Origin: Promethearchaeum syntrophicum
GTDB taxonomy: Archaea > Asgardarchaeota > Lokiarchaeia > Sigyniarchaeales > Promethearchaeaceae
Direction of reading: 5' to 3'
Length of the DNA: 32,000 bases
Assembly (NCBI RefSeq): GCF_008000775.2
Contig: NZ_CP042905.2
Location: 1,110,001 to 1,142,000, forward strand
This document shows positions 8,160 to 32,000 of this stretch, piece after piece. The translations under genes and the position numbers were made by a program. Every line of letters begins with the position of its first letter. The first letter of the stretch is position 1. The notes under the pieces were generated by a model that was not told where the DNA came from, made no database searches, and saw nothing but the letters and a program-made list of their open reading frames with translations.

Positions 8160-10034
8160 ATGTCATTTACAGAAAAATTGAAAAAAAATTCAGTAGGAAT
8201 TTTGTTTGCCGGACTCATGATTTTGGCAATGTTCTCTACACTCATGCAAAATGGGATACAGACTGATTGGGGGAATGTCGATGTCACTACTATTGAAATA
8301 GTGAACGAGGACGGTATTAGAGTTGTTGGCAAACTTTATCGACCTGTGGACGTTACATCGGCAAATCCTGCACCAGGTGTCATAGCCATCCATGGGTACA
8401 ACAATGATAAGGACGTTCAACGTCCGAATGCAATTGAAATGTCGAAACGAGGGCTTGTCGTTTTGGCTATTGATGTCTTAAATCACGGTGATTCGGGATA
8501 TTTGAATACCACGACTTTTGGATCCCCTGCGCCGACCGCAGCATATGAATGGCTTCGGAATCAAGCTTTTGTTAACCCGAATAAAACTGGAAGTGTTGGG
8601 CATAGTATGGGGGCATATTATACTTTTGCCCTTGGACTAGCCTATCCTGAAATTGATGTTCTCGGTTTTCAAGCTTTTGGAACCGAATTTCCTGGTTTTT
8701 ATGGCTTTGGATCGGTGGATATGTGGAAACCGACTAACCAGAGTATCATCCAAGTGTGGTCAACGATGGAAGAATATGGTCCCGAACCCAACCAAACCCA
8801 AGATGATTGGATTGAACAAAATTTACTCCAGATCGGAATCAACGCAGGGTTACCTGCCGGAACTTTAGGCGAAGAGAGCCGTATATATGGTTCATTTGAA
8901 TCAGGATTTGCGCAAGAGTATGTCATGCACCTTGGTTCTCATCCTTCACAAACGCACAGTGAGAAGGGGACCAAAGCACTTGCTTCCTTCTTTCTTCAAG
9001 GATTAACTGGAATGGATCAAGCAGCAGCCGATCTTTCGGTAGAAGAAACTACCTATGCTTGGGCTGAAATTTGGGGTTTTATAGGATTGATTTCACTTCT
9101 TATCTCGATTATTCCCTTTGCACTATTGCTCCTAAAAACCAACTTCTTTGCACCCTTGAAGCAAGAAATGCCTGCTTATGACGATCGTTTCGTAAACAAA
9201 AAAGGTATGTGGTGGCTCTATGCCAGTATAAATACAGTTCTTGGTGGGGTTTTATATATGTTCTTCACCGATAACAAGAAAAATATCTTGGATGGAGATT
9301 GGTTGAAATTGACCTTTCCCAACTTCTTTACCAGTGGCATGTCAAATAATTTTAACATGTTCTATACTATGAATTGGATTATCGCCTTAACGTTCTTGAT
9401 AGTGATGTGGTTGATTTTAGGGAAGAAGAAAGGAATGAATTTCCTCTATGATTATGGGCTTGCATTTACTGAAGAAAAAAGTAAATATGATTGGAAACGT
9501 TTGGGAAAAACTATCCTTCTCATTGTGGCTGGTTTCTTATATATGTACGCAATGGCGATATGGGCTAAAGAAATGTACAGTCTTGAATTCAGGTCTGCAT
9601 GGTCGTTCCTTAAAACCTTCACACCCGAACGATGGATTAATTTCTGGAAATATTTCCCTGCTGTCTTAGCGTTCTGGTTTGTGAACGGTGGAATGCTATT
9701 ATTTGGAGCCTTCCGACAGAAAGAATATGATAGTGAAATCAAGACAGTTCTTATCTGGTGGATTAAAGCCTTATTCGCGATGTTATTAGGACTCGCCTTG
9801 TTAAACCTCATTATGTACCTTCCATATGTTTGGGGATGGAGTGGATTATTCATGATGAACTTAGCTTACGCCCCGATGATGACCTATCAACTCTGGTCGT
9901 TCTATCCATTTGCTGCGCTGTTGATCCTTTTTGCGATCATCTTGTATCGAAAAACAGGAAAAATCTATCTTGGATCAATATTAAGTGCGGTTCTTTCGAC
10001 ATGGTTTATGGTTACCTCACAAATCATCACATAA
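8160..10034 (+). CDS. Membrane-anchored alpha/beta-hydrolase fused to a C-terminal polytopic membrane domain, function unknown
   Basis: 624 aa. An N-terminal TM helix is followed by an alpha/beta-hydrolase fold with VIAIHGYNND (HG oxyanion region) and the nucleophile elbow GHSMG. Residues about 300-624 are hydrophobic with roughly 8-9 TM helices. Confidence 0.75.
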   Translation: MSFTEKLKKNSVGILFAGLMILAMFSTLMQNGIQTDWGNVDVTTIEIVNEDGIRVVGKLYRPVDVTSANPAPGVIAIHGYNNDKDVQRPNAIEMSKRGLVVLAIDVLNHGDSGYLNTTTFGSPAPTAAYEWLRNQAFVNPNKTGSVGHSMGAYYTFALGLAYPEIDVLGFQAFGTEFPGFYGFGSVDMWKPTNQSIIQVWSTMEEYGPEPNQTQDDWIEQNLLQIGINAGLPAGTLGEESRIYGSFESGFAQEYVMHLGSHPSQTHSEKGTKALASFFLQGLTGMDQAAADLSVEETTYAWAEIWGFIGLISLLISIIPFALLLLKTNFFAPLKQEMPAYDDRFVNKKGMWWLYASINTVLGGVLYMFFTDNKKNILDGDWLKLTFPNFFTSGMSNNFNMFYTMNWIIALTFLIVMWLILGKKKGMNFLYDYGLAFTEEKSKYDWKRLGKTILLIVAGFLYMYAMAIWAKEMYSLEFRSAWSFLKTFTPERWINFWKYFPAVLAFWFVNGGMLLFGAFRQKEYDSEIKTVLIWWIKALFAMLLGLALLNLIMYLPYVWGWSGLFMMNLAYAPMMTYQLWSFYPFAALLILFAIILYRKTGKIYLGSILSAVLSTWFMVTSQIIT

Positions 10035-10074
10035 GATCAATATATTGAATTTGTGAGCGGAAAGCATTGTAACC

Positions 10075-10085
10075 TTTTTTTTTTT
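10075..10085 (+). terminator. Oligo-T tract (T11) downstream of the hydrolase gene, in a convergent intergenic region
   Basis: T11 lies at 10075-10085. An A9 run at 10131-10139 gives the equivalent T-run on the minus strand, directly after the stop of the convergent gene. Confidence 0.5.
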
Positions 10086-10139
10086 ATACTTATTTTCTTA
10101 ATTTTCAGATATTAACTTATTGAAATATATAAAAAAAAA

Positions 10140-10988
10140 TTAATTATGTTTATCAGGTTCAGCTGGTAAGGGAACTTTCTTTAGTTTTTTCATCAATAAA
10201 GGTTTAAGGAGAGAAATTCTAATCTTTTTTAGAATATAGGGTATTTTTGGCCCCAATTTCTTCAAGATTAAATATGAATCAATTAAATTTGCAATACCTT
10301 CTAATCCTGAAGGCATCATTTCCATATTGATAATTCCTTTAAATTTTATTTTCTTTAGAAATTTTTCAAATAAATCCAACGGTAATGCTCCACCTTCAGT
10401 ACCAAAAGGCCAATGAGAATCTGAAACACCATCCAATTCTGAGATGTGAATGTAATTTAGATCTAATAGAAGAACTTCAGGAATATTGAATAAATCAACT
10501 GGACCATGGGTGAGAAAACTGTGTGGAACATCAAAGCATATACCCACTTTCGCTTTGGTTTTGTTTTTTGTATCTAAATACCAAGTTTTAAAATCTCCTA
10601 ATTTTTGTCCTGGAAGATTTTCTAATAAAACAGTAATTTTAATCCGATCCAAATTTCTAATATAATATTCTTCATCTTTATCCGGATCCATAGGTGGGTG
10701 GATGACAATTCCAATAGCTCCTAATGCGGTCGCATAATTTTCAAGATTAACCAAGTATTTCTCTACTTTTTCAGACTGTTTAATCGAGCTTAAATCATAT
10801 CCCCAATCAAAATAATAAGGAGCATGAAGAATTATAGATTTTTTCTGAACTAACGGTATTACTGCTTCTATATCATCGAATGCAGTAGGATCTAATTCCA
10901 GATGTTCAAATCCTAATAAATTTGCCATTGAAATTATGTGTGATGGCTTAAGCGGTCCTAAACTTTGTATTGTTTGCCCAACTTTCAT
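10140..10988 (-). CDS. Xylose isomerase-like TIM-barrel protein (sugar phosphate isomerase/epimerase, AP-endonuclease-2 superfamily)
   Basis: 282 aa. Ordered barrel motifs: HLELD, ILHAPYY, VIHPP, LLENLPG, CFDVPHSF, IHISELDG..DSHWPFG, NMEMMP. Confidence 0.65.
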   Translation of the reverse strand: MKVGQTIQSLGPLKPSHIISMANLLGFEHLELDPTAFDDIEAVIPLVQKKSIILHAPYYFDWGYDLSSIKQSEKVEKYLVNLENYATALGAIGIVIHPPMDPDKDEEYYIRNLDRIKITVLLENLPGQKLGDFKTWYLDTKNKTKAKVGICFDVPHSFLTHGPVDLFNIPEVLLLDLNYIHISELDGVSDSHWPFGTEGGALPLDLFEKFLKKIKFKGIINMEMMPSGLEGIANLIDSYLILKKLGPKIPYILKKIRISLLKPLLMKKLKKVPLPAEPDKHN

Positions 10989-11042
10989 GATTATATGTTT
11001 TCTTTAATAAATATTATATGTTTTCTTTTTTTCCATTGATTT

Positions 11043-11585
11043 ATGATAGCGGGGAGTAATATTTGTTTGGGACCAATGAAAAAAGAGTATCTTACACAAT
11101 ATACCAAATGGATGAATGATCCAGAAATGGTTCAATATTTAGGCATGATCCAACCAATGACTCGAGAAAATGAAGAGGAGTGGTATGAAAATGCCAGAAA
11201 AAACAAAAATGCAGTATATTTTGCGATTCTTCTAATCAATGGAGATATAGAGGAATTAATTGGAAATTGTGGTGTCGATATTGACTGGAAAAATAAATTG
11301 GGAGATTTAGGAATCACTATTGGAGAAAAAGATCAATGGGGGAAGGGATATGGAACTGAAGCAATGCAACTTTTAGTTAATTATTGCTTTCATACTCTGA
11401 ATTTGCATAAAGTTAAACTTAATGTCTATGATTTCAATACTCGGGCAATTAAATCCTACAGGAAAATCGGTTTTATAAAAGAAGGAAATCATCGGAAGTC
11501 ACACTATGTAAACGGTAAATATGTAGATTTATTCGCAATGGGACTTTTAAAGGATGAATGGAAGCAAAAGAGAGAAAATGCATAA
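11043..11585 (+). CDS. GNAT family N-acetyltransferase (RimJ/RimL-like), paralogue of 4813-5385
   Basis: 180 aa. Motifs: WGKGYGTEAMQLLVNYCFHTLNLHKVKLNVYDFNTRAIKSYRKIGFIKEG and NGKYVDLFAMGLLKDEW. The motif order matches the first GNAT. Confidence 0.85.
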   Translation: MIAGSNICLGPMKKEYLTQYTKWMNDPEMVQYLGMIQPMTRENEEEWYENARKNKNAVYFAILLINGDIEELIGNCGVDIDWKNKLGDLGITIGEKDQWGKGYGTEAMQLLVNYCFHTLNLHKVKLNVYDFNTRAIKSYRKIGFIKEGNHRKSHYVNGKYVDLFAMGLLKDEWKQKRENA

Positions 11586-11602
11586 AAAAAAATTAGGATT
11601 TT

Positions 11603-12445
11603 TTATACTTTTTGAGTAATTACAACTTTTTTCAGTTGATCCTCGAATTCATCAAGTTTTTCTAAGAATATTTCAATAGCTTTGCTTAGGATCTCTTTAA
11701 TTGGGAGAGCACCTGTTGCTTCGATTGTAAAAATAAATTTATTGGGAACATAATCTACTTTTATAGCTCCTGCTGGAGCGTATTTTTCACCAGATCCTGT
11801 AAAATCTGGACCATTCCAATATTTATCTACCATTGCTAATTTTCCATCAACTTTCGTAAATAATTTAGTATGATCGTGCTTAATTACATTATCGATATCG
11901 GCTTCAGTCATTTTCGAATTATCTATCTTTACATCTGGAAAATATTTATATCCAACTGAGCATACTGGTTGGAATTTTGCATGGTCCATACCGATTCCTA
12001 ATTGAGCATAAGCCTCAAAAACTATAGAAGATTTTTTTCCCAATTTTCCGATAATGATAGTATCGCTTACCGGACGTATTTTCTCATCCATTGATTTAAG
12101 ATCCCCAGAATAAACTATAGCCTCGTTATTCTTGGTTCGAACGTCACATTCCAGTTGAACTTGACAAAGGGTACAACCTTGACCCCCACAAGAGCATTCA
12201 TCAGGAAGATTATAGTTCTTTAAATCAGTAGTTAATGGAATAAGTGCTAATCTATGTGCAATCATTTCATCGAAAAGCACGCTATCATTTTCAACAAATA
12301 AAACTTCTGTTATTGCCATAGATGGAACTTCGGTTAGGATAATTCGACGGAAAGCATTAGCCAATTCAATGCTGACACCTTCAAGAATAAATTTCATCAA
12401 ATCTTCATTTTTAGTCTGAATATGTTCAATTACTTCAATTTTCAT
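11603..12445 (-). CDS. rpoD: DNA-directed RNA polymerase subunit D (Rpo3)
   Basis: 280 aa. Motifs: ELANAFRRIILTEVPSMAI, DEMIAHRLALIPL, and the Cys cluster CSCGGQGCTLCQ as in archaeal Rpo3 and eukaryotic RPB3/AC40. There are no cysteines in the region where some archaeal D subunits bind an Fe-S cluster. Confidence 0.93.
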   Translation of the reverse strand: MKIEVIEHIQTKNEDLMKFILEGVSIELANAFRRIILTEVPSMAITEVLFVENDSVLFDEMIAHRLALIPLTTDLKNYNLPDECSCGGQGCTLCQVQLECDVRTKNNEAIVYSGDLKSMDEKIRPVSDTIIIGKLGKKSSIVFEAYAQLGIGMDHAKFQPVCSVGYKYFPDVKIDNSKMTEADIDNVIKHDHTKLFTKVDGKLAMVDKYWNGPDFTGSGEKYAPAGAIKVDYVPNKFIFTIEATGALPIKEILSKAIEIFLEKLDEFEDQLKKVVITQKV

Positions 12446-12599
12446 TTTAACACCAGTTCTTTGCTAGTTAGAAAAATTCAGCATAAAATTTATGTTTTGC
12501 GAATTACTAAGATTTCTGAAAATTTAGGAAACTTTCCTTTACCTAGTTGCCGAAAATTCTTAGGAAAATTAAAATAGTTCATAATTTCCAAATAGATTA

Positions 12600-13373
12600 A
12601 TGAAGATTATTTTTGATAGTAAATATTTGGAAGAATACGATCATACTCCTGCAGGGGAAGCGGGTCGACTTGAGCCCGCTTTAAAAGCTTTAAAAGCTGA
12701 TCCGCAGTACATTTTTATAAATCCTAAACCTGCACCAATAGTAGCAATAGAAAGAGCTCATTCTATCAACCATATAAAAAATATTAAAAAAGAAAATCAT
12801 AGTTTTAAAAATAAATTGTTCGATATCGCTAGATTGGCGGCGGGTGGTTCAATTTTATGTGCAAATATCGCAAAAAATGGAAATCCTGCCTTTGGTCTAA
12901 TTCGTCCTCCGGGTCATCATGCTTCATACGATTCTTGTTGGGGATTTTGTTATTTCAATAATATTGCTGTCTCCTTACTTCATCTTCGTGAAACCAGTGG
13001 ATGTAAACGCGCATTTATCTTAGATTTTGATCTTCATGTGGGGGATGGGAATATAAATATATTGGAACCCCTTAAAGATTATGAAATTTTAAATCCTCAC
13101 GCGAATAATGAGGAAAGTTATTTAAAAATTGTCAAAAATAAATTAGATAATGCGCGTGATTGTGATATTATTGTCGCTTCTGCAGGTTTTGATCAAGGAA
13201 TTGATGATTGGGGTAGACTTTTGAGCCCAGATGCGTATTTTCAAATAGGAACAATGATGAAAGAATTTGCAGAAAAAAGATGCAATGGAAGAAGATATGC
13301 ACTACTCGAAGGGGGCTATAATTTTAAGAAAATGGCAATTAACATTAAATCCTTTTGTGAAGGGTTTAGGTAA
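12600..13373 (+). CDS. Histone deacetylase / acetoin-utilisation / acetylpolyamine amidohydrolase family protein (compact, 257 aa)
   Basis: Active-site motifs appear in order: RPPGHHA, DFDLHVGDGN, SAGFDQGIDD, EGGY. Confidence 0.85.
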   Translation: MKIIFDSKYLEEYDHTPAGEAGRLEPALKALKADPQYIFINPKPAPIVAIERAHSINHIKNIKKENHSFKNKLFDIARLAAGGSILCANIAKNGNPAFGLIRPPGHHASYDSCWGFCYFNNIAVSLLHLRETSGCKRAFILDFDLHVGDGNINILEPLKDYEILNPHANNEESYLKIVKNKLDNARDCDIIVASAGFDQGIDDWGRLLSPDAYFQIGTMMKEFAEKRCNGRRYALLEGGYNFKKMAINIKSFCEGFR

Positions 13374-16824: not shown

Positions 16825-17340
16825 TTATTTAATATTTTTCGTTTTTAACATCAAGCTTGCAAGTATTGTCAATCCTCCTGCAATGACTTGTAAATACATA
16901 GAAAAACTAGGCATAAAATAGTTTTCTCCCCCAAAAGAGCCCCAATAAGTAGGATACCCTCTCCCTAAAGTGTAAATGATTTGCCACATGACTGCGAGCA
17001 AGATTGGGGTTATAATCATTAGTATTCCTCCAATAAAGGAAATTTTACTATTAAATTCATCTTCTTGCACAACTTTTATTGAAGCTCTCAAAATTAAACC
17101 CGAACTTAACAAGATTATAATCATTGAAGATAGAGCGGGGATTAAAAATTCTACTTCTGTATTAAAAGTAATATCAACTTCACTTGAACTTAATCCGAAC
17201 GTAAGAGTAAATCCCCATAACCAAAATTGATACAAATAATTCGGACTAACGTGATATATCACGGGAGTAAAAACTGATAAAAAACCTATAACAGCAGCCG
17301 ATAAAAGGATAATTTTATGAATTCTCATATTTTTCACCAA
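16825..17340 (-). CDS. Hypothetical integral membrane protein (about 4-5 TM helices)
   Basis: 171-aa ORF that is hydrophobic throughout. I see no recognisable family motif. Confidence 0.6.
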   Translation of the reverse strand: MVKNMRIHKIILLSAAVIGFLSVFTPVIYHVSPNYLYQFWLWGFTLTFGLSSSEVDITFNTEVEFLIPALSSMIIILLSSGLILRASIKVVQEDEFNSKISFIGGILMIITPILLAVMWQIIYTLGRGYPTYWGSFGGENYFMPSFSMYLQVIAGGLTILASLMLKTKNIK

Positions 17341-17610: not shown

Positions 17611-19002
17611 ATGCAAGGTCTCATCCACCCAGAAGAAACTTCCACTTTCGATAAAAAACTTAAGTTTAATGCCCCCGCAGACTACAGAGAACAATTCATG
17701 AACTGGCACACCGCTCAGAAAATCACCAAAGGAGTTGAAAATTATTACCTAGGAGATGCAATGCATATTAGATCCGTCCTAATCAACTATAAGTCTTCCG
17801 AACCTCTTAAAAAATTCGATAATACATGGTTGCGCAATAAAAAAGCAGGATTATATTACCTATTCTCCAAAAACTCCATCAGAAACAAGGAAAGTGTTAT
17901 ATCCGATTTTTCATATTTCGATCATCCAAATAATGGAAAATCATGGAAAACCTCGGGAAATGAACGAAATGGAAATCAACCCATCACCCAAAGAATGAAA
18001 TCGACAAACAATCATGTGAAATCCAGACTCGCTGTTGATTATGAATATGACTCCTTTCCGATCGGCCACCCTGAAAATCCATTCACCAACGCTTTCGTCA
18101 TCGACTTCTACGGAGAAATTCAAAATGATCCTATTAAAACTGCTGCAGGGACCCTAAGATCAAGAGTTTCGTATGAAGACTACATCAAATATATTAATGG
18201 AGTCAAAAATAAAATGCTTGACCTCAAAAAGGATTACGACTTTCTCAGTCACTCTCAAGTTTTACCTGACATGCCGGTAACTGAATTCGCCCGTCTTTTC
18301 AATTCTCACAGCCAAGTGAATTATTATGGAACCAGAGCAATGAAACGAATGAAAGGATGCTGGGCAGATACCTTCATCGAATTCAATAACCTTGGAACTC
18401 TACTTCGTTTCCAAATTGAATTCCTTGGAACCGATGAAAAAATCTATAAAAAGGTTAAACAGAACGACAACGAAGGAGGATTCAATCCGGAAAAAATGCC
18501 GACACTTTACGTCTGTGACTCTCCCACAGAAAAAGTCAAATTCTTAGAAGATCATAAAAATATCGGTTTTAACTCCCCGATACTCACGAAGGCCGAATAC
18601 TTCACCCTAATGAAAGCATGGTGGTACGCATACGCCGAAATGACCAACAACGGGCAGGATCGGAGCACTTTCAGTTTTCAATCCTTTATCACACAGCTCC
18701 ACGCTAAAGCCGATGATTGGCACATTGATGCCTTTACCGCCCAAATGGTTATGGGATCATTTGGATATGGAGTGAATGAACAAAATCTTGGAATTCGATT
18801 CAGTGGTAATCCTGCTGAAGAATTGGGAACATTTAAATGGAAGAGTGAAAATAAAAAGAACCCAAAATACGATTTCAATTATGAAGCCCAATCTTCCGAT
18901 ATCGCCCTCGATTTTACCACTTTCCTCTACCTATCCGGAGATCCCGAAATGCTCTCCTATATTCGATTCCACCTATGGAAACCCGAATGGGGTACAACTT
19001 AG
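17611..19002 (+). CDS. Hypothetical protein, no recognisable domain
   Basis: 463-aa uninterrupted ORF of ordinary globular composition, rich in W/Y/F/N. I recognise no motif. A T11 run lies at 19040-19050 downstream. Confidence 0.7.
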   Translation: MQGLIHPEETSTFDKKLKFNAPADYREQFMNWHTAQKITKGVENYYLGDAMHIRSVLINYKSSEPLKKFDNTWLRNKKAGLYYLFSKNSIRNKESVISDFSYFDHPNNGKSWKTSGNERNGNQPITQRMKSTNNHVKSRLAVDYEYDSFPIGHPENPFTNAFVIDFYGEIQNDPIKTAAGTLRSRVSYEDYIKYINGVKNKMLDLKKDYDFLSHSQVLPDMPVTEFARLFNSHSQVNYYGTRAMKRMKGCWADTFIEFNNLGTLLRFQIEFLGTDEKIYKKVKQNDNEGGFNPEKMPTLYVCDSPTEKVKFLEDHKNIGFNSPILTKAEYFTLMKAWWYAYAEMTNNGQDRSTFSFQSFITQLHAKADDWHIDAFTAQMVMGSFGYGVNEQNLGIRFSGNPAEELGTFKWKSENKKNPKYDFNYEAQSSDIALDFTTFLYLSGDPEMLSYIRFHLWKPEWGTT

Positions 19003-21070: not shown

Positions 21071-22348
21071 TTGAAAAAATTTGAAAACTACAAAAATAAA
21101 AAAAATACTACAAAAAAGGTTTTTATTATGCTCGAAGAAAATAATGAAGAAGAAGAGGAAGAACCCGTCGAAGATTTTACTGACTTAGACGCGGTTGTGG
21201 ATGAAGTACAAGACCTAGAAATCGGAGTCGATGATGATTCGCTCGATTACGACGATTTCTCAGCCGAAGACATCGACGGAGAAAAGGAGGCAGTACTTAT
21301 GAGTAAGCAATGGTATAAACGAATCGAAGTCGATATGTGGATGACAAAAGCTCACATGGCAACCATGGGAATAAGGCAGCAGGACCAATACCGTGCCCAG
21401 AGCCGCCAGTACACAGCCAATATGGAAGTAAAAGGGGATATTACATTTTATGCGTATAGCCCTGAGGATTTGAACAAACCGTTTAAAGAAAGGAAAAGAC
21501 CTGTCAAAGTATTGGATTACAAAGAGATTGTCGGCTATAATAAAGGATTTTGGGATTATGATGACAAGAAATCATCTATATACAGACAAGCCGAGAAATC
21601 TGCAGAAGATTATGATCCAGCAGAATACGCAAAATTATTACGTCGTTTAGTGATAAAGACATTTTCTGAACTCAAACGTGATAAGAAGAAGAAAGGTCAT
21701 GCTGGGAGATGGCGTGGAACTATGGAAGAAAGTGTTGTACTAGGTATAAATGCAATGTTCGGAGAGAACAGGGGAAAACCTCGCCCATATTTCTTTTTAA
21801 ATTTACCTGGGTATAATTATCGGCTAGCACTTTGGCGTACAAACACCATTATTGGAGATAGGTATGTGTTTACCGTTCCACATCCAAAAACAGGGGAATT
21901 AACAACTTTCAGGATAAAAGGGCGCAGATTTACTCCAGGAAAAGATTTCAAAGTATTCAATGCGGAAACTGGGGAAAAAGTAGCAGAAATTGACGATCGA
22001 AAATTGAATATTGGTGGAAGAATGACTATAAGATTTAGAGGCGAAGAACAATTTGAGGATCTTAATCGCTCCACGGTATTTCGTAGGACTTTAATAATGT
22101 TCGCAATTATGGTTAAGTTTTTAAGACCAATCAACAGGAAATATAGAAGACTTTACCGGGGCTTAAAGAAGAAAAAGAAATATTTGAAGGCTCTAAACAG
22201 AGCTAAGAAAACTCAAGACACAGCAAAGGTAGATGCAGTTAAGTTGAAGTACCAAGATGTTCAGAGAGAATGCAAGATGCTCAAAGCTATAGAGGTAACG
22301 AACTCCGAATTGACATTGCACTTTAATCCACGTAGAATTAGAACTTAA
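21071..22348 (+). CDS. Hypothetical protein with acidic N-terminus, beta-rich core, hydrophobic helix and basic C-terminal tail (possible scramblase/LOR/Tubby-like fold)
   Basis: 425-aa ORF from TTG 21071. ATG 21129 (MLEENNEEEEEE) is the more likely start. The acidic D/E run is followed by repeated beta-hairpin-like segments (FKVFNAETGEKVAEIDDRKLNIGGRMTIRF). Next come a hydrophobic helix (TVFRRTLIMFAIMVKFL) and a K/R-rich tail. A T10 run follows the stop. Confidence 0.7.
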   Translation: MKKFENYKNKKNTTKKVFIMLEENNEEEEEEPVEDFTDLDAVVDEVQDLEIGVDDDSLDYDDFSAEDIDGEKEAVLMSKQWYKRIEVDMWMTKAHMATMGIRQQDQYRAQSRQYTANMEVKGDITFYAYSPEDLNKPFKERKRPVKVLDYKEIVGYNKGFWDYDDKKSSIYRQAEKSAEDYDPAEYAKLLRRLVIKTFSELKRDKKKKGHAGRWRGTMEESVVLGINAMFGENRGKPRPYFFLNLPGYNYRLALWRTNTIIGDRYVFTVPHPKTGELTTFRIKGRRFTPGKDFKVFNAETGEKVAEIDDRKLNIGGRMTIRFRGEEQFEDLNRSTVFRRTLIMFAIMVKFLRPINRKYRRLYRGLKKKKKYLKALNRAKKTQDTAKVDAVKLKYQDVQRECKMLKAIEVTNSELTLHFNPRRIRT

Positions 22349-23809: not shown

Positions 23810-24421
23810 TTAGGTTGTAGCAATGAATAAAATCATTTCCGCTGCTTTATCATTGAAAGATTCCATTCCCCCTACACTTTCTGCACTAACGGTATAGAAT
23901 TCTTTGACTACAATGTTTCTTTTTGCAAAAAATTCTATAACTTCTGATTTCATGGATTCTACAGTTTGGGTTCTTTGGTTATCTGGTATCAAATCGATTT
24001 TATTAAAGCAAACATAGATTTGTTTTGGGAAGAATCTAACATCTCTGAAAAATTGAAATTGTTCTTTGACTGGGCGATCACAAGCGAAAACTGCAATTAT
24101 TTGTTTAGCGATTCTTGAAATTGTAATAACTCCCATCCTAACTACTGCTCTTCCTCGATCCCCACCTGGAGCGAAAAGTGTGTGATTACGTTTTAGTTCA
24201 TTCTCACGAAAAACAACTCGATTAGGATGAATAGTCTTTGTTTCTTTTATTCCGGTTTCCGGATCTAAAACTGCTTCTCCTGAAAAGTCTGTTTTAACAA
24301 CCGTGCAACTTTTTCCTCCTTTAACTTCATCAATTTTATTTGTTTTCAAGTATTTTACGAATAATCTTAGAATTGTCGTCTTTCCTACTGATACTGCTCC
24401 TAAAAGTCCTATATTTGTCAT
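23810..24421 (-). CDS. Small Ras-superfamily GTPase, MglA/COG2229-like, with a non-canonical G3 motif
   Basis: 203 aa. G1 is GAVSVGKT (aa 8-15), G4 is NKID (aa 140-143) and G5 is VSA (aa 178-180). The G3 position reads LFAPGGDRG instead of DxxGQ or (T/G)xPGQ. The start codon lies 3 nt after the upstream gene's stop, with a GGAGAGGG Shine-Dalgarno-like sequence inside that gene. Confidence 0.85.
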   Translation of the reverse strand: MTNIGLLGAVSVGKTTILRLFVKYLKTNKIDEVKGGKSCTVVKTDFSGEAVLDPETGIKETKTIHPNRVVFRENELKRNHTLFAPGGDRGRAVVRMGVITISRIAKQIIAVFACDRPVKEQFQFFRDVRFFPKQIYVCFNKIDLIPDNQRTQTVESMKSEVIEFFAKRNIVVKEFYTVSAESVGGMESFNDKAAEMILFIATT

Positions 24422-24424
24422 GAT

Positions 24425-25258
24425 TTAACCCTCTCCTTCATCTATTTCTTCTATTTCTAATAATTTATTTAAAAATGTTTCATAATCGTCAACTAAAAAC
24501 TGCTCCAATATGGAATTATTATGGCAAACGATTAAAAGACCCAAAAGATCTTTGAAATTGGTTGATTCCCTAATAAATGTAAGTAAATTTTCTTCTGTTG
24601 GTTCAGCATCGAAGATTCGAGGGGGTTGCTCAAATCCAAATTTCTCTGTTGATGTTGGCAGCTTACTAAAGTATCCGAATGCCGTATTCCCTTCATGTTC
24701 AAAGAAAACAAAAAATCGTGATTTTAGATTGGGGACAAAATTAGAAAGAAACACAGTTGAATATAATTCTCCTAAAAATAAATCTTCATCTTGCCTCAAA
24801 GTATAGTATGGTGAAATTGGGCTTTTCAATCCCGGAGGAAACATTTCTGCCGGTGGTAGACTCACAAATGGTAATTTTTCTTCAATAATCATCCATAAGT
24901 CGTCACGTTCGTTGTGTAGCAAAATCTCCTTGACTTCTTCATATGCAAACTTAAAATCTGCTTGAAAGCTTATCAAACTTGATAAATATACAGATAAACA
25001 TGCAAAAGTTGCATCCAATTGGGGTTTTTTGGATGTTGAACTAGACGGTTTGACAGCCCCTCTCCAATCTCGAAGTGCGGTATAAGCCCACCCTCGTGTG
25101 TCGAAGAACTGTCCTGATAAAAGGATAAAGTTAATGTCTTGTTCTCTACCAAGCAATTCTCTAACTTTAAGGATTAAAGCCCTTTCGACTTTTTCATTAT
25201 TAAAACGTGAATGGATCTTTGGGTAAATAAGGATCGGTTTTTTTTTTTTTTTAGCCAT
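24425..25258 (-). CDS. Hypothetical 277-aa protein, translationally coupled to the GTPase (candidate GTPase partner)
   Basis: Uninterrupted ORF whose N-terminus MAKKKKKPIL is encoded by an A15 run. The C-terminal third alternates beta-like (RFFVFFEHEGNTAFGYF, LLGLLIVCH) and helical segments. I see no recognised motif. Confidence 0.7.
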   Translation of the reverse strand: MAKKKKKPILIYPKIHSRFNNEKVERALILKVRELLGREQDINFILLSGQFFDTRGWAYTALRDWRGAVKPSSSTSKKPQLDATFACLSVYLSSLISFQADFKFAYEEVKEILLHNERDDLWMIIEEKLPFVSLPPAEMFPPGLKSPISPYYTLRQDEDLFLGELYSTVFLSNFVPNLKSRFFVFFEHEGNTAFGYFSKLPTSTEKFGFEQPPRIFDAEPTEENLLTFIRESTNFKDLLGLLIVCHNNSILEQFLVDDYETFLNKLLEIEEIDEGEG

Positions 25259-25361
25259 TAATCTCGACTCTCTTTCTATAATTCAAAATGGTTGAGTTGT
25301 CCTTTAAAATTTTTGTTTCTGACAAATTATTAAATTTTTCTACAAATTTAAATTGATGTAC

Positions 25362-25898
25362 TTATTTATTGGTTAATTTTTCGACTGCTTTTGTTATAAA
25401 TTCGAAACTTTCATAAGATTTTACATTTTGTAGGCTAATAATTTCAATTATTTCATGATTCTCATATTTTTTCCGTGTTAGGTGAGTTCCTAGTTTTTCT
25501 TCTTTCTTTTTTAATTCCAGTAATACAGGTTTTACAAATTCATTAATATATTTTTCTTCAGTAATTTTTACAATTTCAGGGGACGGAAATCTAATCGATA
25601 TTGTGTCATTTTCAAATTTGATGACAGATAACAATTCTTCTGATTTTGAGAAAATTTTTTTAGTATAATCTACGTTGTTGAAACTTGATTTTGATTTAAA
25701 AGCAGCGGTTTCTGCATCAAGTAATGATGCAGCTGTCTTAAAACTCCCCGTTGAAATTAGAAGATTGAGTTTATCACTATTTTTAGTTAATAAAACAATT
25801 TCCTCATTAAGAACATTGATTTGATCTTTTTTTTGCTCGATAATTTTTTTCAGATCTTCTATTAGGTCTAATAGCTTTTTAATCTCGTTTTCCTTCAT
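25362..25898 (-). CDS. Hypothetical protein with an N-terminal coiled coil and a C-terminal alpha/beta domain
   Basis: 178 aa. The first 45 aa or so are heptad-like (IKKLLDLIEDLKKIIEQKKDQINVLNEEIVLL). The remainder is a mixed alpha/beta pattern with no recognised motif. It sits on the same strand as the GTPase cluster. Confidence 0.65.
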   Translation of the reverse strand: MKENEIKKLLDLIEDLKKIIEQKKDQINVLNEEIVLLTKNSDKLNLLISTGSFKTAASLLDAETAAFKSKSSFNNVDYTKKIFSKSEELLSVIKFENDTISIRFPSPEIVKITEEKYINEFVKPVLLELKKKEEKLGTHLTRKKYENHEIIEIISLQNVKSYESFEFITKAVEKLTNK

Positions 25899-25956
25899 CG
25901 ATCAATTATAGTGGTTAAAGTGTAAAAATAGTTTTTAAAAAAAAAATTAAGATTTC

Positions 25957-26280
25957 TTAATCTTTTAATTTTAATTTTTTAGCTTTACTTGGTCCTGAAT
26001 TTTCAGGATTAACTCCTTCTATTGTTTTGATTAAGGCTGGTACTTCATCTTCCATAAGCGCTTCTTGGAACTGTAAGTACATCTCGAAATCGGCAATAAA
26101 TAACCCTTTTCGTTTTTTTGGTTGCCCTGTAGTTTTATTTATCGGATTTACCTCTACCATGAGTTTTGCTTCACGGGTTTTTGTTGCTGGTATCTTAACA
26201 ACAAAGACTCCATCTATATCGGTTTCCATTTTCTCCCAGTCTTTAGCTGATTCTAAAAACTCTCTTAATGCGTTTTCCAT
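25957..26280 (-). CDS. Hypothetical 107-aa protein
   Basis: Uninterrupted ORF and the first gene of the minus-strand run 26280-23810. It has a K-rich C-terminal tail (SKAKKLKLKD) and no recognised motif. Confidence 0.6.
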   Translation of the reverse strand: MENALREFLESAKDWEKMETDIDGVFVVKIPATKTREAKLMVEVNPINKTTGQPKKRKGLFIADFEMYLQFQEALMEDEVPALIKTIEGVNPENSGPSKAKKLKLKD

Positions 26281-26502: not shown

Positions 26503-26709
26503 ATGAGAATGCTATCAGTGTTTATCCCCGAATCTTATATCGAATCTTTAGATATTCTTGTTGCTGAAGAAATTTTCCCGAATAGAAGTGAAGCAATTCG
26601 ATCAGCAATAAGAGATTTAATTCGAAATGAAATACTCTTAAAAGATGCCGTCACTAAAAGAAAAAACAAAAAGCAATTTGAGAAACAATCGAATCAAGAA
26701 CAAAATTAA
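26503..26709 (+). CDS. Ribbon-helix-helix (CopG/Arc/MetJ-type) DNA-binding protein
   Basis: 68 aa. An N-terminal beta-strand (LSVFIPESYIESLD) is followed by the typical RHH helices (FPNRSEAIRSAIRDLIRNE) and a basic tail. Confidence 0.8.
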   Translation: MRMLSVFIPESYIESLDILVAEEIFPNRSEAIRSAIRDLIRNEILLKDAVTKRKNKKQFEKQSNQEQN

Positions 26710-26718
26710 AAAAAAATC

Positions 26719-29700
26719 TTAATCTCCCAATAGTTTCTTCCGTGCTTCTCTTCTTCTCTTCTTTCTTTCTTCAATAATTAGATTTTTCCGCTCATTTTCT
26801 GATAAGAATGTTTTCTTTTCGGATTCTACACTTCTAGATTCCTGTCTTTGTTGATTTAATTGATGTCGTGTGTATTTTAATTTCCAACGAAGCATTTCTT
26901 GTTCAACTTTTCGTGCTTCCTTTTCGTTTCCTAACTGAATATAGATCTCTTTTGCCTTATTTGCAAGTTCTAAACCTTCTTCAAAATTATTATTTTTTAT
27001 ATTTCCTGAAGCTTCTTTCATCACTTTAAGTGCTTTACTTTCTGTAGGAGCGTACTTCTTCATTTCAATTTCTTTTCTATATTCTTCTTTTTCTTGTTCA
27101 AGAACTTCCTTAAAATCATCAAGTAATTTCAACGACTTTGGCCATTTCAAATTCTTTGCCATTTCGCTAACTGTATTCATTTCTGTTTGGGCTACTAGAA
27201 AATCCTTACGTTTCTGAGCAAGTAAGATTAACGAAAGAGAATTTGCGAAATGATATTCTAAATCCAGTTTGGGATTATTAAGAATTTCATTTATATCCAT
27301 TAAAGGATTAGTTATGAGGTTATAAACTTGTAAAAATCGCTTTTTTAGTGCCTTTGCTTCTCTAACCCACTCAATTTCAATGAAATTATTTAGTGCATAA
27401 TGGAAGTAATATAAACTTAGATAAAATTTTCTGCCTTTGACACATTTTTCTGCCTGATCTATATATTCATACGCTGCATCTTCAAGAGTCACTCGATAAT
27501 TAAATACAACTTGTTGCTGTTCTGTTAATTCCTTAACTTTTTCACCTTTGGATTTTCTTTCAGCTTCTTGTTTTTCTAAGAAGTCTTTAAAGGCTTTCTG
27601 GGCTTTTTCGTCTTTTTTCTGTTGTTCTTCTAATTGTTTTTCTAGTTTAATAAAATGCTTCTTTTTTGCTTTGACATCTTGAACAATAGATAAAACTTGC
27701 TTATATTTTAGATCCCAATCTATTTTCTTAAATAATTCAATGGATTTATCATAATATTCTAATGCTTTATCAAATTGATTATTATTGGTCAAATCACCAG
27801 CAATTTCCAATATAGATATAATTTCATTTTGGATGTGTGTTACCTTTTCCTTTTCTAATTGGGTTTTCAATTTCTTTTGTTCTGCCAATAATCTATTACG
27901 TTCATCTTTCTGTTTAGATTCACTAATTAGTCGTTCTAACCGCTTTTCTTCCTCTTCTCGTTCTTTAAGTGATTTTTGAGCAATTTCTATATCAAAATTA
28001 TGATCATCCCATAATTTTTGAACCTTTAAAATGGATTCGTTTGTTAATCTGATACCCTCGGAATAATTGATTTCATTGTATTTTTCTACAACATTTTTAT
28101 AAATATTTATTGCAGGTTCAAATTGTTGTTCAGTAACTAACGTTTTGGCTTGATCTAAAAGGTTTAAACAATCATTATAGACATTTTGATGTATCAAACC
28201 TATCTCTTGTTCTCTCTGGAATTGTTCTAATCTTTTTTGTTCTTCAATTTCCCTTTTCTTTCTGTCTTCTTCAATCTTTCTTTGAAATTCTAATTCCCAC
28301 TGTGATCTTTTCTCTTCAGTTTTACTTTGTTCGATTTCTAATCTTTTACGTTCTTCTTCAAACTTCTTCTCCCATGATAATTTTGCCTTCTGATCCATTT
28401 CTTCGATTTCTTTTTGTTTTTTAATCTTAAGTTCTTCTTCTTCTATTTTTTCTAATTCTTTTTGATCCTTTTGTTTTCTAAAAATAGAAATTTGAAGTAA
28501 TACTTTATCTAATTCTGCTAACCATTTAATTTCATCAAGGATATCCATGGCTTCTTGGAATTTTTCAATTGCTTCATCAAATTTAAAATTAGCAGCCAAT
28601 TTATTTCCTTCATCCATAAGATTGAATGCTTTATTCGCCTTATTTTGATCATTTTGATATTTATTCTGAATAGCTGCTTTTTCTTCTTCTTTTCGCCGAT
28701 TTTCTGCTTCTTTCTGTTTTTGAGCATTAAGAATTTGTTGTTCCAACTCTAATTTTGATAATTGGTCTTTCCTAATCTTTTCCTCTTCAAATTTTCGATT
28801 TTTTTCATCAAAAATTAGTTTATCTTTATATAGCAAATATCCATCATTCAATCTTGCAGATTGCTCTAATAATCCTATCTCCTTTAATTTTTCACTACCT
28901 GTCTTATAAACTTCAATAGCAATCGAATAAGGACATTTAGATAATAACATTTTTCCTAAACCAACTTGATCTTCATATTTTTTAACTTGTTTCTCTATTT
29001 TTTCTATTGCACTCAAAGCTTCGGTTAAAATTTCTCTTTGGGAACTTAATTTCTCTTGTTCTTTCTTTTTTTGTTCGCCCTTTTCTTTTAGTTTAATTTC
29101 TTTTAATTTTGCGGCCACTTGTGCTTGCATTTCAAGTTTTTCCCTGTCTATCTCTATTTTAGTCAATCTTTGTTTTTCAAGATCGCGAAGTCTCTTGTCC
29201 TCAATTATTTTCTTTTCGTATATTTTTCTGCCTTCATCTAACCTATCCGCTTGTTCAATTAAACCTATTTCTCTTAATTTATTTGTTCCAATATTATATA
29301 ATTCAACTGCTTTTGGATAGGGGCATTCAAGAGATAAAATTTTTCCTAAACTGACTTCTTTTGAATATTCATTAACAACATCTTCGATTTTACTAATATC
29401 ACCTAGGACATCCTTTAATCTAGATTCTTTTTGGGAAATTACCTCAAGTTCTTTTTGGCGTTTTTCTCTTAATTCTTGCTCTTTGAGTTCTTTTAACCTT
29501 TGAGCTTCGTATGTTTTCTTTTCAAATTCTTCCTTTTCCAACCTAGCTCTCTCTTTTTTCTGGTTTTCAAGATCTCGAAGGTCCTTATCCTCAATAATTT
29601 TCTGTTCGTAGGTTTTTCTACCTTCATCTAACCTATCAGCTTGCTCAATTAAACCTATTTCTCTTAATTTGTTTGTTCCAATATTATATAATTCAACAGC

Positions 29701-32000
29701 TTTTGGATAGGGGCATTCTAGTGATAAAATGTTTCCTAAGCTAACTCCCTTTGCATATTCACTTACTACATCTTCAATTTTACTAATATCACCTAGAACA
29801 TCCTTTAATCTAGATTCTTTTTGGGAAATTACCTCAAGTTCTTTTTGGCGTTTTTCTCTTAATTCTTGCTCTTTGAGTTCTTTAATCCTTTGCGCTTCTT
29901 CCGCTTTCCTTTCAATTTCTTCTTCATCTAACCGAGCTTTTTCTATTCTCTGAAATTCACGTTCGCGATGTTTCAGATCTTCAATAATTTTTCGTTCATA
30001 AGTTTTTCTACCTTCATCTAACCTGTCCGCCTGTTCAATTAGACCCGCTTCTCTTAATTTGATTGTTCCAGTTTTATAAAGCTCTACAGCTTTTGGATAG
30101 GGGCATTCCAGAGATAATATTTTTCCTAAGCCGACTTCTTTTACATAAGCATTTACCACATCTTCAATTTTACTTAAATCACCTAAAACATTCTTTAATT
30201 TTGATTCTTTCTTGGAAAGTACTTCAAGTTCTTTTTGGCGTTTTTCTCTTAATTCTTGCTCTTTGAGTTCTTTAATCCTTTGCGCTTCTTCCGCTTTCCT
30301 TTCAATTTCTTCTTCATCTAACCGAGCTTTTTCTATTCTCTGAAATTCACGTTCGCGATGTTTCAGATCTTCAATAATTTTTCGTTCATAAGTTTTTCTA
30401 CCTTCATCTAACCTGTCCGCTTGTTCAATTAAGCCAGCTTCTCTTAATTTAATTGTTCCAATTTTATAAAGCTCTACAGCTTTTGGATAGGGGCATTCCA
30501 GAGATAATATTTTTCCTAAGCCGACTTCTTTTATATAAGCATTTACCACATCTTCAATTTTACTTAAATCACCTAAAACATTCTTTAATTTGGATTCTTT
30601 CTTGGAAAGTACTTCAAGTTCTTTTTGACGTTTTTCTCTTAATTCTTTCTCTTTTAGTTCTATTAATCTTTGAGCTTCTTTAGCTCTTATCTCGATTTCT
30701 TCTTCTCCTAATCTATATTTTTCTATTCTCTGAATTTCACGTTCGCGATGTTTCTCATCTTCAATAATTTTTCGTTCATAAGTTTTTCTACCTTCATCTA
30801 ACCTGTCCGCTTGTTCAATTAGACCCGCTTCTCTTAATTTGATTGTTCCAGTTTTATAAAGCTCTACAGCTTTTGGATAGGGGCATTCCAGAGATAATAT
30901 TTTTCCTAAGCCGACTTCTTTTACATAAACATTTACCACATCTTCAATTTTACTTAAATCACCTAAAACATTCTTTAATTTTGATTCTTTCTTGGAAAGT
31001 ACTTTAAGTTCTTTTTGGCGTTTTTCTCTTAATTCTTGATCTTTGAGTTCTATTAATCTTTGAGCTTCTTTAGCTTTTATCTCGATTTCTTCTTCTCCTA
31101 ACCTATATTTTTCTATTCTCTGAATTTCACGTTCGCGAAGTCTCTTATCTTCAATTATTTTCTGTTCATAAGTTTTTCTTCCTTCATCTAACCTGTCTGC
31201 TTGTTCAATTAAACCCGCTTCTCTTAATTTGATTGTGCCAATTTTATAAAGCTCTACAGCTTTTGGATAGGGGCATTCCAGAGATAATATTTTTCCTAAG
31301 CCGACTTCTTTTACATAAACATTTACCACATCTTCAATTTTACTTAAATCACCTAAGACATTCTTTAATTTTGATTCTTTCTTGGAAAGCGTTTCAAGTT
31401 CTTTTTGACGTTTTTCTCTTAATTCTTGCTCTTTGAGTTCTATTAATCTTTGAGCTTCTTTGGCTTTTATCTCGATTTCTTCTTCTCCTAACCTATATTT
31501 TTCTATTCTCTGAATTTCACGTTCGCGAAGTCCCTTATCTTCTTCGATTTTTCGTTCGTATGTTTTTCTACCATCATCTAACCTATCTGCTTGTTCGATT
31601 AGACCTGCTTCTCTTAATTTCTTTGTTCCTATATTATAAAGTTCTACAGCTTTTGGATATGGACATTCTAAGGACAAAATTTTACCTAAACCAACTCCTT
31701 TTGCATAATCATTAACAACATCTTCGATTTTACTAATATCACCTAAAACATCCTTTAATTTCGATTCTTTTTGAGAAATTGCTTCAAGTTCTTTTTGACG
31801 CTTATCTCTCAATTCTTTCTCTTTTAATTCTTGAATTCTTTGTGCTTCTTCCGCTTTCCTTTCAATTTCATCTTCATCTAACCGAGCTTTTTCTATTCTC
31901 TTTTTTTCGCGTTCACGAATCTTCTTATCTTCAAGAATTTTACTTTCGTAAGTTTTTCTTCCTTCATCCAAACGATTGGCTTGCTCAATTAAACCCGCTT
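26719..32000 (-). CDS. Giant modular repeat protein (partial; N-terminus lies beyond the window): E/R/K-rich helices alternating with TPR-like helical hairpins
   Basis: The frame is open from the stop at 26719 to the window edge. The ORF-track Met at 31971 is really the Leu of the repeat motif AGLIEQANRLDEGRK, so at least 1760 aa are visible. There are eight 130-aa tandem modules, then about 700 aa of diverged modules of the same architecture. Confidence 0.9.
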   Translation of the reverse strand, partial: AGLIEQANRLDEGRKTYESKILEDKKIREREKKRIEKARLDEDEIERKAEEAQRIQELKEKELRDKRQKELEAISQKESKLKDVLGDISKIEDVVNDYAKGVGLGKILSLECPYPKAVELYNIGTKKLREAGLIEQADRLDDGRKTYERKIEEDKGLREREIQRIEKYRLGEEEIEIKAKEAQRLIELKEQELREKRQKELETLSKKESKLKNVLGDLSKIEDVVNVYVKEVGLGKILSLECPYPKAVELYKIGTIKLREAGLIEQADRLDEGRKTYEQKIIEDKRLREREIQRIEKYRLGEEEIEIKAKEAQRLIELKDQELREKRQKELKVLSKKESKLKNVLGDLSKIEDVVNVYVKEVGLGKILSLECPYPKAVELYKTGTIKLREAGLIEQADRLDEGRKTYERKIIEDEKHREREIQRIEKYRLGEEEIEIRAKEAQRLIELKEKELREKRQKELEVLSKKESKLKNVLGDLSKIEDVVNAYIKEVGLGKILSLECPYPKAVELYKIGTIKLREAGLIEQADRLDEGRKTYERKIIEDLKHREREFQRIEKARLDEEEIERKAEEAQRIKELKEQELREKRQKELEVLSKKESKLKNVLGDLSKIEDVVNAYVKEVGLGKILSLECPYPKAVELYKTGTIKLREAGLIEQADRLDEGRKTYERKIIEDLKHREREFQRIEKARLDEEEIERKAEEAQRIKELKEQELREKRQKELEVISQKESRLKDVLGDISKIEDVVSEYAKGVSLGNILSLECPYPKAVELYNIGTNKLREIGLIEQADRLDEGRKTYEQKIIEDKDLRDLENQKKERARLEKEEFEKKTYEAQRLKELKEQELREKRQKELEVISQKESRLKDVLGDISKIEDVVNEYSKEVSLGKILSLECPYPKAVELYNIGTNKLREIGLIEQADRLDEGRKIYEKKIIEDKRLRDLEKQRLTKIEIDREKLEMQAQVAAKLKEIKLKEKGEQKKKEQEKLSSQREILTEALSAIEKIEKQVKKYEDQVGLGKMLLSKCPYSIAIEVYKTGSEKLKEIGLLEQSARLNDGYLLYKDKLIFDEKNRKFEEEKIRKDQLSKLELEQQILNAQKQKEAENRRKEEEKAAIQNKYQNDQNKANKAFNLMDEGNKLAANFKFDEAIEKFQEAMDILDEIKWLAELDKVLLQISIFRKQKDQKELEKIEEEELKIKKQKEIEEMDQKAKLSWEKKFEEERKRLEIEQSKTEEKRSQWELEFQRKIEEDRKKREIEEQKRLEQFQREQEIGLIHQNVYNDCLNLLDQAKTLVTEQQFEPAINIYKNVVEKYNEINYSEGIRLTNESILKVQKLWDDHNFDIEIAQKSLKEREEEEKRLERLISESKQKDERNRLLAEQKKLKTQLEKEKVTHIQNEIISILEIAGDLTNNNQFDKALEYYDKSIELFKKIDWDLKYKQVLSIVQDVKAKKKHFIKLEKQLEEQQKKDEKAQKAFKDFLEKQEAERKSKGEKVKELTEQQQVVFNYRVTLEDAAYEYIDQAEKCVKGRKFYLSLYYFHYALNNFIEIEWVREAKALKKRFLQVYNLITNPLMDINEILNNPKLDLEYHFANSLSLILLAQKRKDFLVAQTEMNTVSEMAKNLKWPKSLKLLDDFKEVLEQEKEEYRKEIEMKKYAPTESKALKVMKEASGNIKNNNFEEGLELANKAKEIYIQLGNEKEARKVEQEMLRWKLKYTRHQLNQQRQESRSVESEKKTFLSENERKNLIIEERKKRRREARKKLLGD
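28849..32000 (-). repeat. Exact 390-bp-period in-frame tandem repeat array (8 full units plus the start of a ninth at the window edge)
   Basis: The landmark ttttggata(g/t)gg(g/a)cattc recurs at 29311, 29701, 30091, 30481, 30871, 31261 and 31651, with a diverged copy at 28921. Unit boundaries are 28849, 29239, 29629, 30019, 30409, 30799, 31189, 31579 and 31969. 29834-30030 is identical to 30224-30420. Confidence 0.95.

Follow-up and report, generated by a model that had tools for sequence, protein, structure and literature searches.

A 32,000-nucleotide stretch of the Promethearchaeum syntrophicum MK-D1 chromosome (NZ_CP042905.2, positions 1,110,001-1,142,000; hereafter the window) carries four consecutive open reading frames (ORFs) on its minus strand, the last of which encodes a small GTPase with an atypical G3 motif. 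The window is ordinary chromosomal housekeeping DNA, with genes for ribosomal proteins S9, L13 and L18e, an RNA polymerase Rpb3-like subunit, serine hydroxymethyltransferase, aroA and transporters. An earlier inspection of the letters and predicted ORFs (the sequence-only reading) had described a four-gene cluster in which an MglA/COG2229-like GTPase is coupled to a protein of 277 amino acids (aa), here called the partner. ORF calls recovered all four frames exactly as it had placed them (Table 1). The products were identified by exact look-up as DSAG12_01606-01609 (WP_147662679-82), every one annotated as "hypothetical protein"; the 178-aa product is 100% identical to DSAG12_01608 of MK-D1. 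Because of this identity, and because the databases hold 630 relatives of the GTPase and 237 of the partner, with a GTPase relative in 155 species-level genomes, the four ORFs are real genes rather than chance frames.

Table 1. Features of the GTPase locus (window positions, except the last row, which refers to locus L003)
Feature	Position	Strand	Identifier	Basis or remark
GTPase, 203 aa	23810..24421	-	DSAG12_01606, WP_147662679.1	ORF, family alignment, AlphaFold2, Foldseek
Partner, 277 aa	24425..25258	-	DSAG12_01607, WP_147662680.1	237 homologues, alignment, AlphaFold2
Putative adaptor (coiled-coil protein), 178 aa	25362..25898	-	DSAG12_01608	colinear similarity across loci, hidden Markov model (HMM) search, alignment
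Neighbour gene, 107 aa	25957..26280	-	DSAG12_01609	outside the conserved module
GGAGAGGG, Shine-Dalgarno-like site	24429..24436	-		sequence read
T10 run and TATA-like TATTTTTA	25923..25946	-		sequence read
T-rich tract after GTPase stop codon	23789..23809	-		sequence read
SMC set, example	9128-12642	-	L003	equivalent position in 57-62 other loci

Translation of the last gene gives GAVSVGKT for G1, FAPGGD for G3, NKID for G4 and SA(E) for G5, the motifs noted before; switch I reads KETKT and G3 in its context HTLFAPGGD. Walker A, the switch-I Thr, the G3 Gly, NKxD, G5 and a Ras-like fold are features of a TRAFAC-class P-loop GTPase, and the gene is predicted to encode a complete guanine-specific G domain; the Walker-B Asp of DxxG, which also characterizes the class, is absent. 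The Walker-B Asp holds a Mg2+-bound water and the G3 Gly senses the γ-phosphate. In the AlphaFold2 model (mean predicted local distance difference test score, pLDDT, 86.5; predicted template modelling score, pTM, 0.85), strand β3 spans residues 79-84 and PGG lies in the following loop. Since the modelled strand ends at A84, Phe83 falls at the position of the Walker-B Asp, Gly86 corresponds to the conserved G3 Gly and Gly87 stands where the catalytic Gln or His would be. The suggestion that G3 has lost both the Walker-B Asp and the catalytic Gln was therefore borne out.

The same G3 is found throughout the family. We compared 196 distinct sequences, 193 of them full-length, and aligned 44. G3 is H[TS]xF[AGSC]PGGD in 193/193 full-length sequences, and the P-loop G..[ST].GK[ST], KETKT and NKxD are retained in all of these. 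Phe occupies the Walker-B Asp position in all members and Gly replaces the catalytic Gln/His in all sequences. The alignment has 62 invariant columns, among them Asp88 and the motif KxDFSGE, which contains Asp45. The departure from the (T/G)xPGQ of MglA-type proteins is thus a family trait, F[AGSC]PGGD, and not local degeneration.

The label 'MglA/COG2229-like' was not supported. MglA has been described as the only GTPase group without the G3 Asp, with TVPGQ (group 1) or GTPGQ (groups 2-5) as its G3 and the catalytic Gln retained (Wuichet & Sogaard-Andersen, 2014; PMC4316618). Beyond this shared loss of the Asp, nothing ties our GTPase demonstrably to that group: its G3 has no Gln, no recognizable MglB gene accompanies it, and MglA appeared neither at E <= 1 in a family-profile search of the PDB nor among the top 50 Foldseek matches to PDB structures. 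That profile search returned the selenocysteine-specific elongation factor eEFSec (E = 7e-4), the archaeal initiation factor aIF2γ (E = 0.007), Rab6, Rab22 and EF-Tu. The best Pfam match was GTP_EFTU (PF00009), over the full profile length and below threshold at 24.3 bits against a cutoff of 26.5, and a precomputed PF00009 match is attached to roughly half of the homologues listed. TIGR00231 (NCBIfam) scored 28.1 bits against a cutoff of 42.5, and Ras, Arf and Roc gave no Pfam match at E <= 1, in keeping with the absent DxxGQ. Foldseek assigned a probability of 1.0 to PH1320, EF-Tu, RABL3, eEFSec, Rab, Ran, RhoA and Gtr1, among others, alike (E 1e-7 to 1e-6), and so did not discriminate between families; the best query-normalised template modelling (TM) score was 0.62, for EF-Tu. 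Profile-profile comparison (hhalign) found no specific relation to two other small GTPases near the module in locus L001, and aligned a neighbouring Asgard Arf/Ras-type GTPase with 16% probability and in the G4 region alone.

These matches raise the possibility that the GTPase is a stand-alone derivative of a translation-factor G domain (EF-Tu/SelB/aIF2γ class) that works on the ribosome or in the control of tRNA or translation. Its N-terminus, (M)VNIGLLGxxSxGKT, aligns with VNVGVLGHIDSGKT of eEFSec and VNIGMVGHVDHGKTS of aIF2γ, as well as with the VNxGxxGHxDxGKT signature of translational GTPases. The latter carry DxPGH, and the xPG of the GTPase G3 matches. However, the scores are marginal, the Foldseek E-values being no better for translation factors than for Rab, Ran and Gtr1. 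Moreover, the 203-aa protein stands alone and ends after the G domain, lacking the β-barrel domain II as well as domain III; both the Asp and the His of DxPGH are replaced, the ribosome-activated catalytic His by Gly, and the neighbouring genes are not translational. We therefore consider such a function highly unlikely. An assignment to HypB/UreG, suggested by some JGI protein names and the GGD motif, was rejected: CobW/HypB gave no match at E <= 1, and the model has a β2-β3 hairpin and a switch-I Thr, both typical of TRAFAC rather than SIMIBI proteins. Automatic annotations of the relatives are inconsistent (SAR1 family, EF-Tu-like, HypB/UreG-like or hypothetical). The best 120 of the 630 relatives are all at least 57% identical, with source names that, where given, are all Asgard or Lokiarchaeota-type. 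We conclude that the protein represents an isolated TRAFAC G-domain family whose nearest neighbours, if any, would be the translation-factor G domains.

The partner is an orphan family. Its 237 relatives are all Asgard and none carries a Pfam domain; identity is 52% or more among those listed, one of which is NEF87_004038 from the cultured Lokiarchaeum ossiferum. When 1.84 billion representative sequences (50% identity) were searched with a HMMER profile, the 27 matches comprised one full-length cluster, a divergent full-length homologue (P0256) and fragments. Forty-nine members gave no Pfam match at E <= 5 save scattered noise, no PDB sequence matched at E <= 10, and Foldseek against the PDB yielded nothing significant (best E 0.15; MglB, GAF and LuxR ligand domains at probability <= 0.16). 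The 49 sequences share 50 invariant columns and describe an α/β protein with a Lys-rich N-terminus and an acidic C-terminal tail. The AlphaFold2 model (pLDDT 73.9, pTM 0.72) runs strand, helix, two strands, long helix, helix, four strands and then further helices. Model confidence is low in the segment that is most conserved, K128-LPF..PP.EM..SP..PY151, as would be expected of an interaction loop.

Two further observations concern this protein. In 50 loci the region upstream of the module holds a divergently oriented gene for a RimK-type ATP-grasp ligase (e.g. L003 3472-4341 (-)); given this gene and the acidic tails (e.g. EIEEIDEGEG, LLEGEE), C-terminal glutamylation of the partner is conceivable. 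In a 257-aa sequence, P0270, the last ~70 residues match the C-terminus of the partner and the first ~180, which we take to be PanB-like, are unrelated to it; P0270 is probably an assembly or gene-calling chimera.

The sequence-only reading noted that known relatives pair with Roadblock/LC7 proteins and could recognize no such pattern in the 178-aa and 107-aa products. Pfam, PDB profile search, hhalign and Foldseek likewise revealed neither a Roadblock nor a longin domain in the partner proteins; a Roadblock assignment by sequence was rejected, hhalign comparisons of the partner and coiled-coil profiles with an Asgard Roadblock domain, and with each other, giving probabilities of at most 0.3%. 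The module could nevertheless be a cryptic MglA-MglB-type system, in which the partner is a highly derived Roadblock/LC7-like (or longin/GAF-like) GTPase-activating protein (GAP) or exchange factor and the GTPase a divergent MglA offshoot without the Gln. MglA alone otherwise lacks the G3 Asp (PMC4316618), and TVPGQ/GTPGQ shares the xxPG core with FAPGG. In the model, partner residues 22-197 follow the order helix-strand-strand-long helix-strand-strand-strand(-strand), which is also that of a Roadblock domain, and MglB chains occur among the weak Foldseek matches (6hjm, target-normalised TM-score 0.34-0.41). These matches are at noise level, however (E 1.6-2.5, probability 0.06-0.09); none of the 49 partner members matches Robl_LC7 even at E <= 5, hhalign gave the partner a 0.2% probability against the Asgard Roadblock domain, MglA is missing from the top 50 structural matches and from the profile matches (E <= 1) to the GTPase, and the family has lost the Gln by which the MglA G3 is defined. 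We judge this origin to be distinctly improbable. The resemblance to MglA-MglB is one of organization: a single-domain small G protein without the G3 Asp and with an xxPG core, an obligatory partner gene next to it and a cycle expected to depend on the partner. The module differs in its FAPGG, from which the Gln is lost too, in a 277-aa partner without a Roadblock signature and in a third, coiled-coil gene.

That third gene had been read as encoding a coiled-coil protein, which is correct for the N-terminal ~55 residues; the remainder is a conserved α/β domain. In the alignment, the N-terminal coiled coil is accompanied by a conserved SFxSA motif, and a variable linker leads to a strand/helix domain at the C-terminus. 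The protein evolves fast: a word-indexed database search gave close relatives only, and PDB and Pfam searches gave coiled-coil noise only. It is colinear over its full length with the genes at the same position in L003 (E = 3e-14) and L001 (E = 4e-10).

The fourth gene does not belong to the unit. The 107-aa product matches no family, and its homologues occur in only five other loci (L008, L009, L010, L011 and L055; not adjacent in L010), restricted to a few close relatives of MK-D1, L. ossiferum among them. L005, with a GTPase 97% identical, carries no copy upstream of its 178-aa homologue. The gene is also unrelated to a ~111-aa family (120 aa in L003), which sits farther upstream in the main group. 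Ahead of the 107-aa gene, upstream of 26280, is a TATA-like box of its own (TTTATAAT); its stop codon is followed by a T10 run (25946-25937) and then by the TATA-like TATTTTTA (25930-25923), about 25-32 nucleotides (nt) before the start codon, ATG, of the 178-aa gene. Oligo-T terminators and TATA boxes are archaeal signals, and the run and box are likely to be the terminator of the 107-aa gene and the promoter of a three-gene operon. At the other end, the T-rich tract lies directly 3' of the GTPase stop and is likely to mark the 3' end of the operon; the TATA-like TTAATATA (23780-23773) precedes aroA, which begins 47 nt downstream of the GTPase on the same strand (Pfam EPSP_synthase, 4.8e-84). 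Since such signals separate the 107-aa from the 178-aa gene and the GTPase from aroA, the conserved unit comprises three genes, coiled-coil protein, partner and GTPase, rather than the four proposed originally; the 107-aa gene, rejected as a fourth member, is a variable neighbour.

Within this unit the partner and GTPase genes are tightly coupled. Their junction reads GAAGGAGAGGGTTAAATCATG: the partner stop codon TAA (24427-24425) is followed by an 'atc' spacer and the GTPase ATG at 24421, the two ORFs being in the same reading frame. GGAGAGGG lies within the end of the partner ORF, 7 nt 5' of the ATG. The 3-nt gap and internal ribosome-binding site are exactly as previously described, and tight or overlapping junctions recur in other loci.

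To follow the arrangement across genomes, we scanned one genome per GTDB species, in which 155 genomes had a GTPase relative, took the best 80 loci and applied HMMs to all ORFs of the resulting 81 non-duplicate loci (the window included). A failure of the genes to co-occur elsewhere had been named as a refuting outcome, and the result is decisively the opposite: in 75/76 testable loci the partner immediately precedes the GTPase on its strand. By ORF calls the gaps range from -47 to +63 nt and are mostly -4 to +16 nt. Counted over all 81 loci, an adjacent partner is present in 75; in five of the remaining six, the sequence available upstream is shorter than 400 nt. A coiled-coil gene was found upstream of the partner in 67/70 testable loci (66 by iterated HMM search, one by six-frame search), usually 75-200 nt away and sometimes behind an insertion of 0.5-3.5 kb. 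Nearly all loci are labelled Promethearchaeota (the NCBI phylum, formerly Lokiarchaeota); a few are labelled Hod-, Hermod- or Thorarchaeota and one Woesearchaeota. These other labels are uncertain, because the identity (~57-59%) equals that of the main group and because the Hodarchaeota contigs L004 and L023 share its SMC neighbourhood. No PADLOC model matched any of the three proteins at E <= 0.1; a defence-system reading was rejected on this ground and because the locus is single-copy and syntenic in a housekeeping context.

The SMC neighbourhood consists of an SMC gene and two small co-directional genes (~216 and ~174 aa), which end convergently just after the GTPase in 57-62 of the 81 loci. 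It suggests a further possibility, that the module works with the SMC condensin in chromosome organization or segregation. The convergent orientation excludes co-transcription, however; the MK-D1 group lacks the synteny and has aroA in the position of the SMC set, and the arrangement may be no more than a gene order inherited within one order-level clade. The two small genes are possibly kleisin/ScpB-like, though neither has a Pfam match and their identity as ScpA/ScpB is unproven. We consider a role in this process very improbable.

Several loci show irregularities. In a Promethearchaeum metagenome-assembled genome (MAG) whose GTPase is 91% identical, the GTPase stop is lost and the frame reads through the spacer into aroA (L007 1556-3589, 678 aa), either through a sequencing error or as a real stop-loss fusion. 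A second, 93-aa C-terminal GTPase fragment lies about 3 kb downstream in L052 (9290-9571). The MAG ABR11 has two separate complete partner-GTPase loci (L014 and L015), which could reflect duplication or a mixed bin.

Around the module, the window holds further ORFs of interest. A small ribbon-helix-helix (CopG-type) regulator gene (26503-26709, (+)) lies between the 107-aa gene and a gene for a 1750-aa Glu/Lys-rich coiled-coil protein (26719-31971, (-)), on the opposite strand. The latter protein has only weak DUF4904 and TPR matches in Pfam, and its tandem repeat of 390 nt (130 aa; at least 7.2 copies, 88% identity, 29175-32000) continues past the window end. Convergent to aroA is an ORF of 425 aa (21071-22348, (+)) that has an acidic N-terminus and matches nothing in Pfam; a related ORF of ~410 aa occupies the same position in nine loci of the MK-D1 group. 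Three other ORFs had no Pfam match either (3164-4612 (+), 482 aa; 17611-19002 (+), 463 aa; 16825-17340 (-), 171 aa), and AT skew is strong (0.35) in the 3-4 kb region.

The GTPase and the partner are the best-conserved members of the unit. Comparison of the window with L001 gives identities of 66% (GTPase), 60% (partner), 29% (coiled-coil protein) and 35% (aroA). Mean pairwise divergence over 45 loci is 0.23, 0.25 and 0.42 for the three module proteins in the same order, compared with 0.43 and 0.49 for the two SMC-adjacent small proteins. These values show strong purifying selection on GTPase and partner, whose slow evolution points to a core housekeeping role and not to an accessory or defensive one. 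Their distance matrices correlate with r = 0.87, and with 0.68 as a partial correlation that controls for the SMC-adjacent genes, which as a control pair reach r = 0.73; with the coiled-coil protein, the partial correlation is 0.61 for the partner and 0.39 for the GTPase. This pattern fits a complex with the partner as a bridge between the GTPase and the coiled-coil protein.

A variant locus, L085, bears on the nature of the pairing. It encodes the divergent partner homologue P0256 with an added N-terminal zinc ribbon (1543-2436), followed by a G domain (2575-3984) in which the P-loop (GDAGLEIDRSPARD), G3 (FTPDDH) and G4 (TSFD) are all destroyed; this degenerate domain is fused to one that is also found in the upstream 425-aa ORF. 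Retention of the gene pair without the nucleotide-binding motifs argues that the pairing is structural. It would also fit a non-hydrolysing G subunit (a GTP-loaded structural or sensor protein, or a pseudo-GTPase) held in a stable complex, with the partner as co-subunit instead of a regulator of hydrolysis. The residues that should coordinate the Mg2+-bound water and position the catalytic water are the non-functional Phe and Gly in every member, and conservation of both proteins over nearly their whole length fits a tightly packed complex. On the other hand, G1, the switch-I Thr, the G3 Gly, NKxD, G5, Asp88 and KxDFSGE are strictly conserved, which looks like selection for a working nucleotide cycle and not for binding alone, and L085 is known from one contig. 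We regard a non-hydrolysing, nucleotide-binding subunit as unlikely.

Taken together, we favour (with a probability of roughly 0.6) a vertically inherited three-gene operon of Lokiarchaeia-type Asgard archaea that most likely encodes one obligate GTPase-partner-adaptor complex, with the partner completing or controlling the nucleotide cycle. In such a complex the G protein would bind GTP, hydrolyse it inefficiently on its own and sense the γ-phosphate through Gly86. The 277-aa protein would bind the G protein stoichiometrically and either supply the missing catalytic or Mg2+-coordinating groups in trans or lock the nucleotide state, acting in the manner of a GAP or co-GTPase, as MglB does for MglA. 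The coiled-coil protein may dimerise the assembly and tether it to a target. Speculatively, the invariant Asp88, or Asp45 of KxDFSGE, might replace the Walker-B acid.

Several points weigh against this proposal. In L032 no partner occurs in the 860 nt upstream of the GTPase or in the rest of the 7.5-kb locus, and three loci have no coiled-coil gene within 3-5 kb. Shared ancestry accounts for part of the adjacency among related genomes, and the pairs compared in a mirror-tree analysis are not independent, which makes the correlations soft evidence. L085 is a 4-kb metagenomic contig with a GC content visibly higher than that of the window; no second example of its type was found, a metagenome scan giving only one marginal fragment. 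Finally, we infer the GAP or co-catalyst role purely from the operon coupling and the crippled G3, for a partner whose fold matches nothing, and complex formation, nucleotide binding and hydrolysis are all predictions.

Mechanistically, the proposed division of labour may be analogous to that of Rap and RapGAP. Rap is a Ras-family GTPase without the catalytic Gln, for which RapGAP supplies a catalytic Asn in trans; here, too, the partner would complete hydrolysis for a G protein that lacks a catalytic residue of its own. Rap differs in keeping the Walker-B Asp, and our general PDB, Pfam and Foldseek searches revealed no sequence or fold relation of the partner to RapGAP. The Streptomyces conservon (CvnA-D) is likewise a multi-gene operon around a G protein with an atypical G3, but the module has no histidine-kinase-like, Roadblock (CvnB) or DUF742 (CvnC) genes, and the three genes neighbouring its GTPase match no Pfam family. 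The Asgard Rab-, Rag/Arf- and MglA-like GTPases that associate with Roadblock or longin proteins share the MK-D1 host and the general pairing of many G proteins with small regulatory domains (Tran et al., 2024; PMC10933270); ours differs in that it lacks a Ras, Arf or Roc match at E <= 1 and has partners that were neither Roadblock nor longin in any of our searches. The text of the supplement to that survey of MK-D1 small GTPases, as far as it was accessible, does not contain WP_147662679, and the literature searched yielded no mention of the locus tags, WP/QEE accessions or UniProt identifiers of the module. G-protein switches with accessory proteins are familiar as a type of system; what is new here is the GTPase family, its G3 chemistry and both partners.

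Surveys of small GTPases rely on Ras, Arf, Rag or MglA models, and this family scores below their thresholds. It forms a second natural group, after MglA, without the G3 Asp, and one in which the catalytic Gln/His is lost too; the loss of both makes it a clean test case for the extent to which a P-loop GTPase can outsource its mechanism to a partner. The family is among the most conserved lineage-specific gene sets seen here and evolves much more slowly than aroA or the SMC-adjacent genes. It is possible, though on balance doubtful, that the triad is a core Lokiarchaeia-specific machine (serving, for example, cytoskeleton, membrane or chromosome) with a new P-loop GTPase chemistry that dispenses with the Walker-B acid and in which hydrolysis, or its deliberate absence, would be dictated by a partner of novel fold. 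As MK-D1 and L. ossiferum, both cultured Lokiarchaeia, encode the module, its biochemistry, structure and localization can be addressed now.

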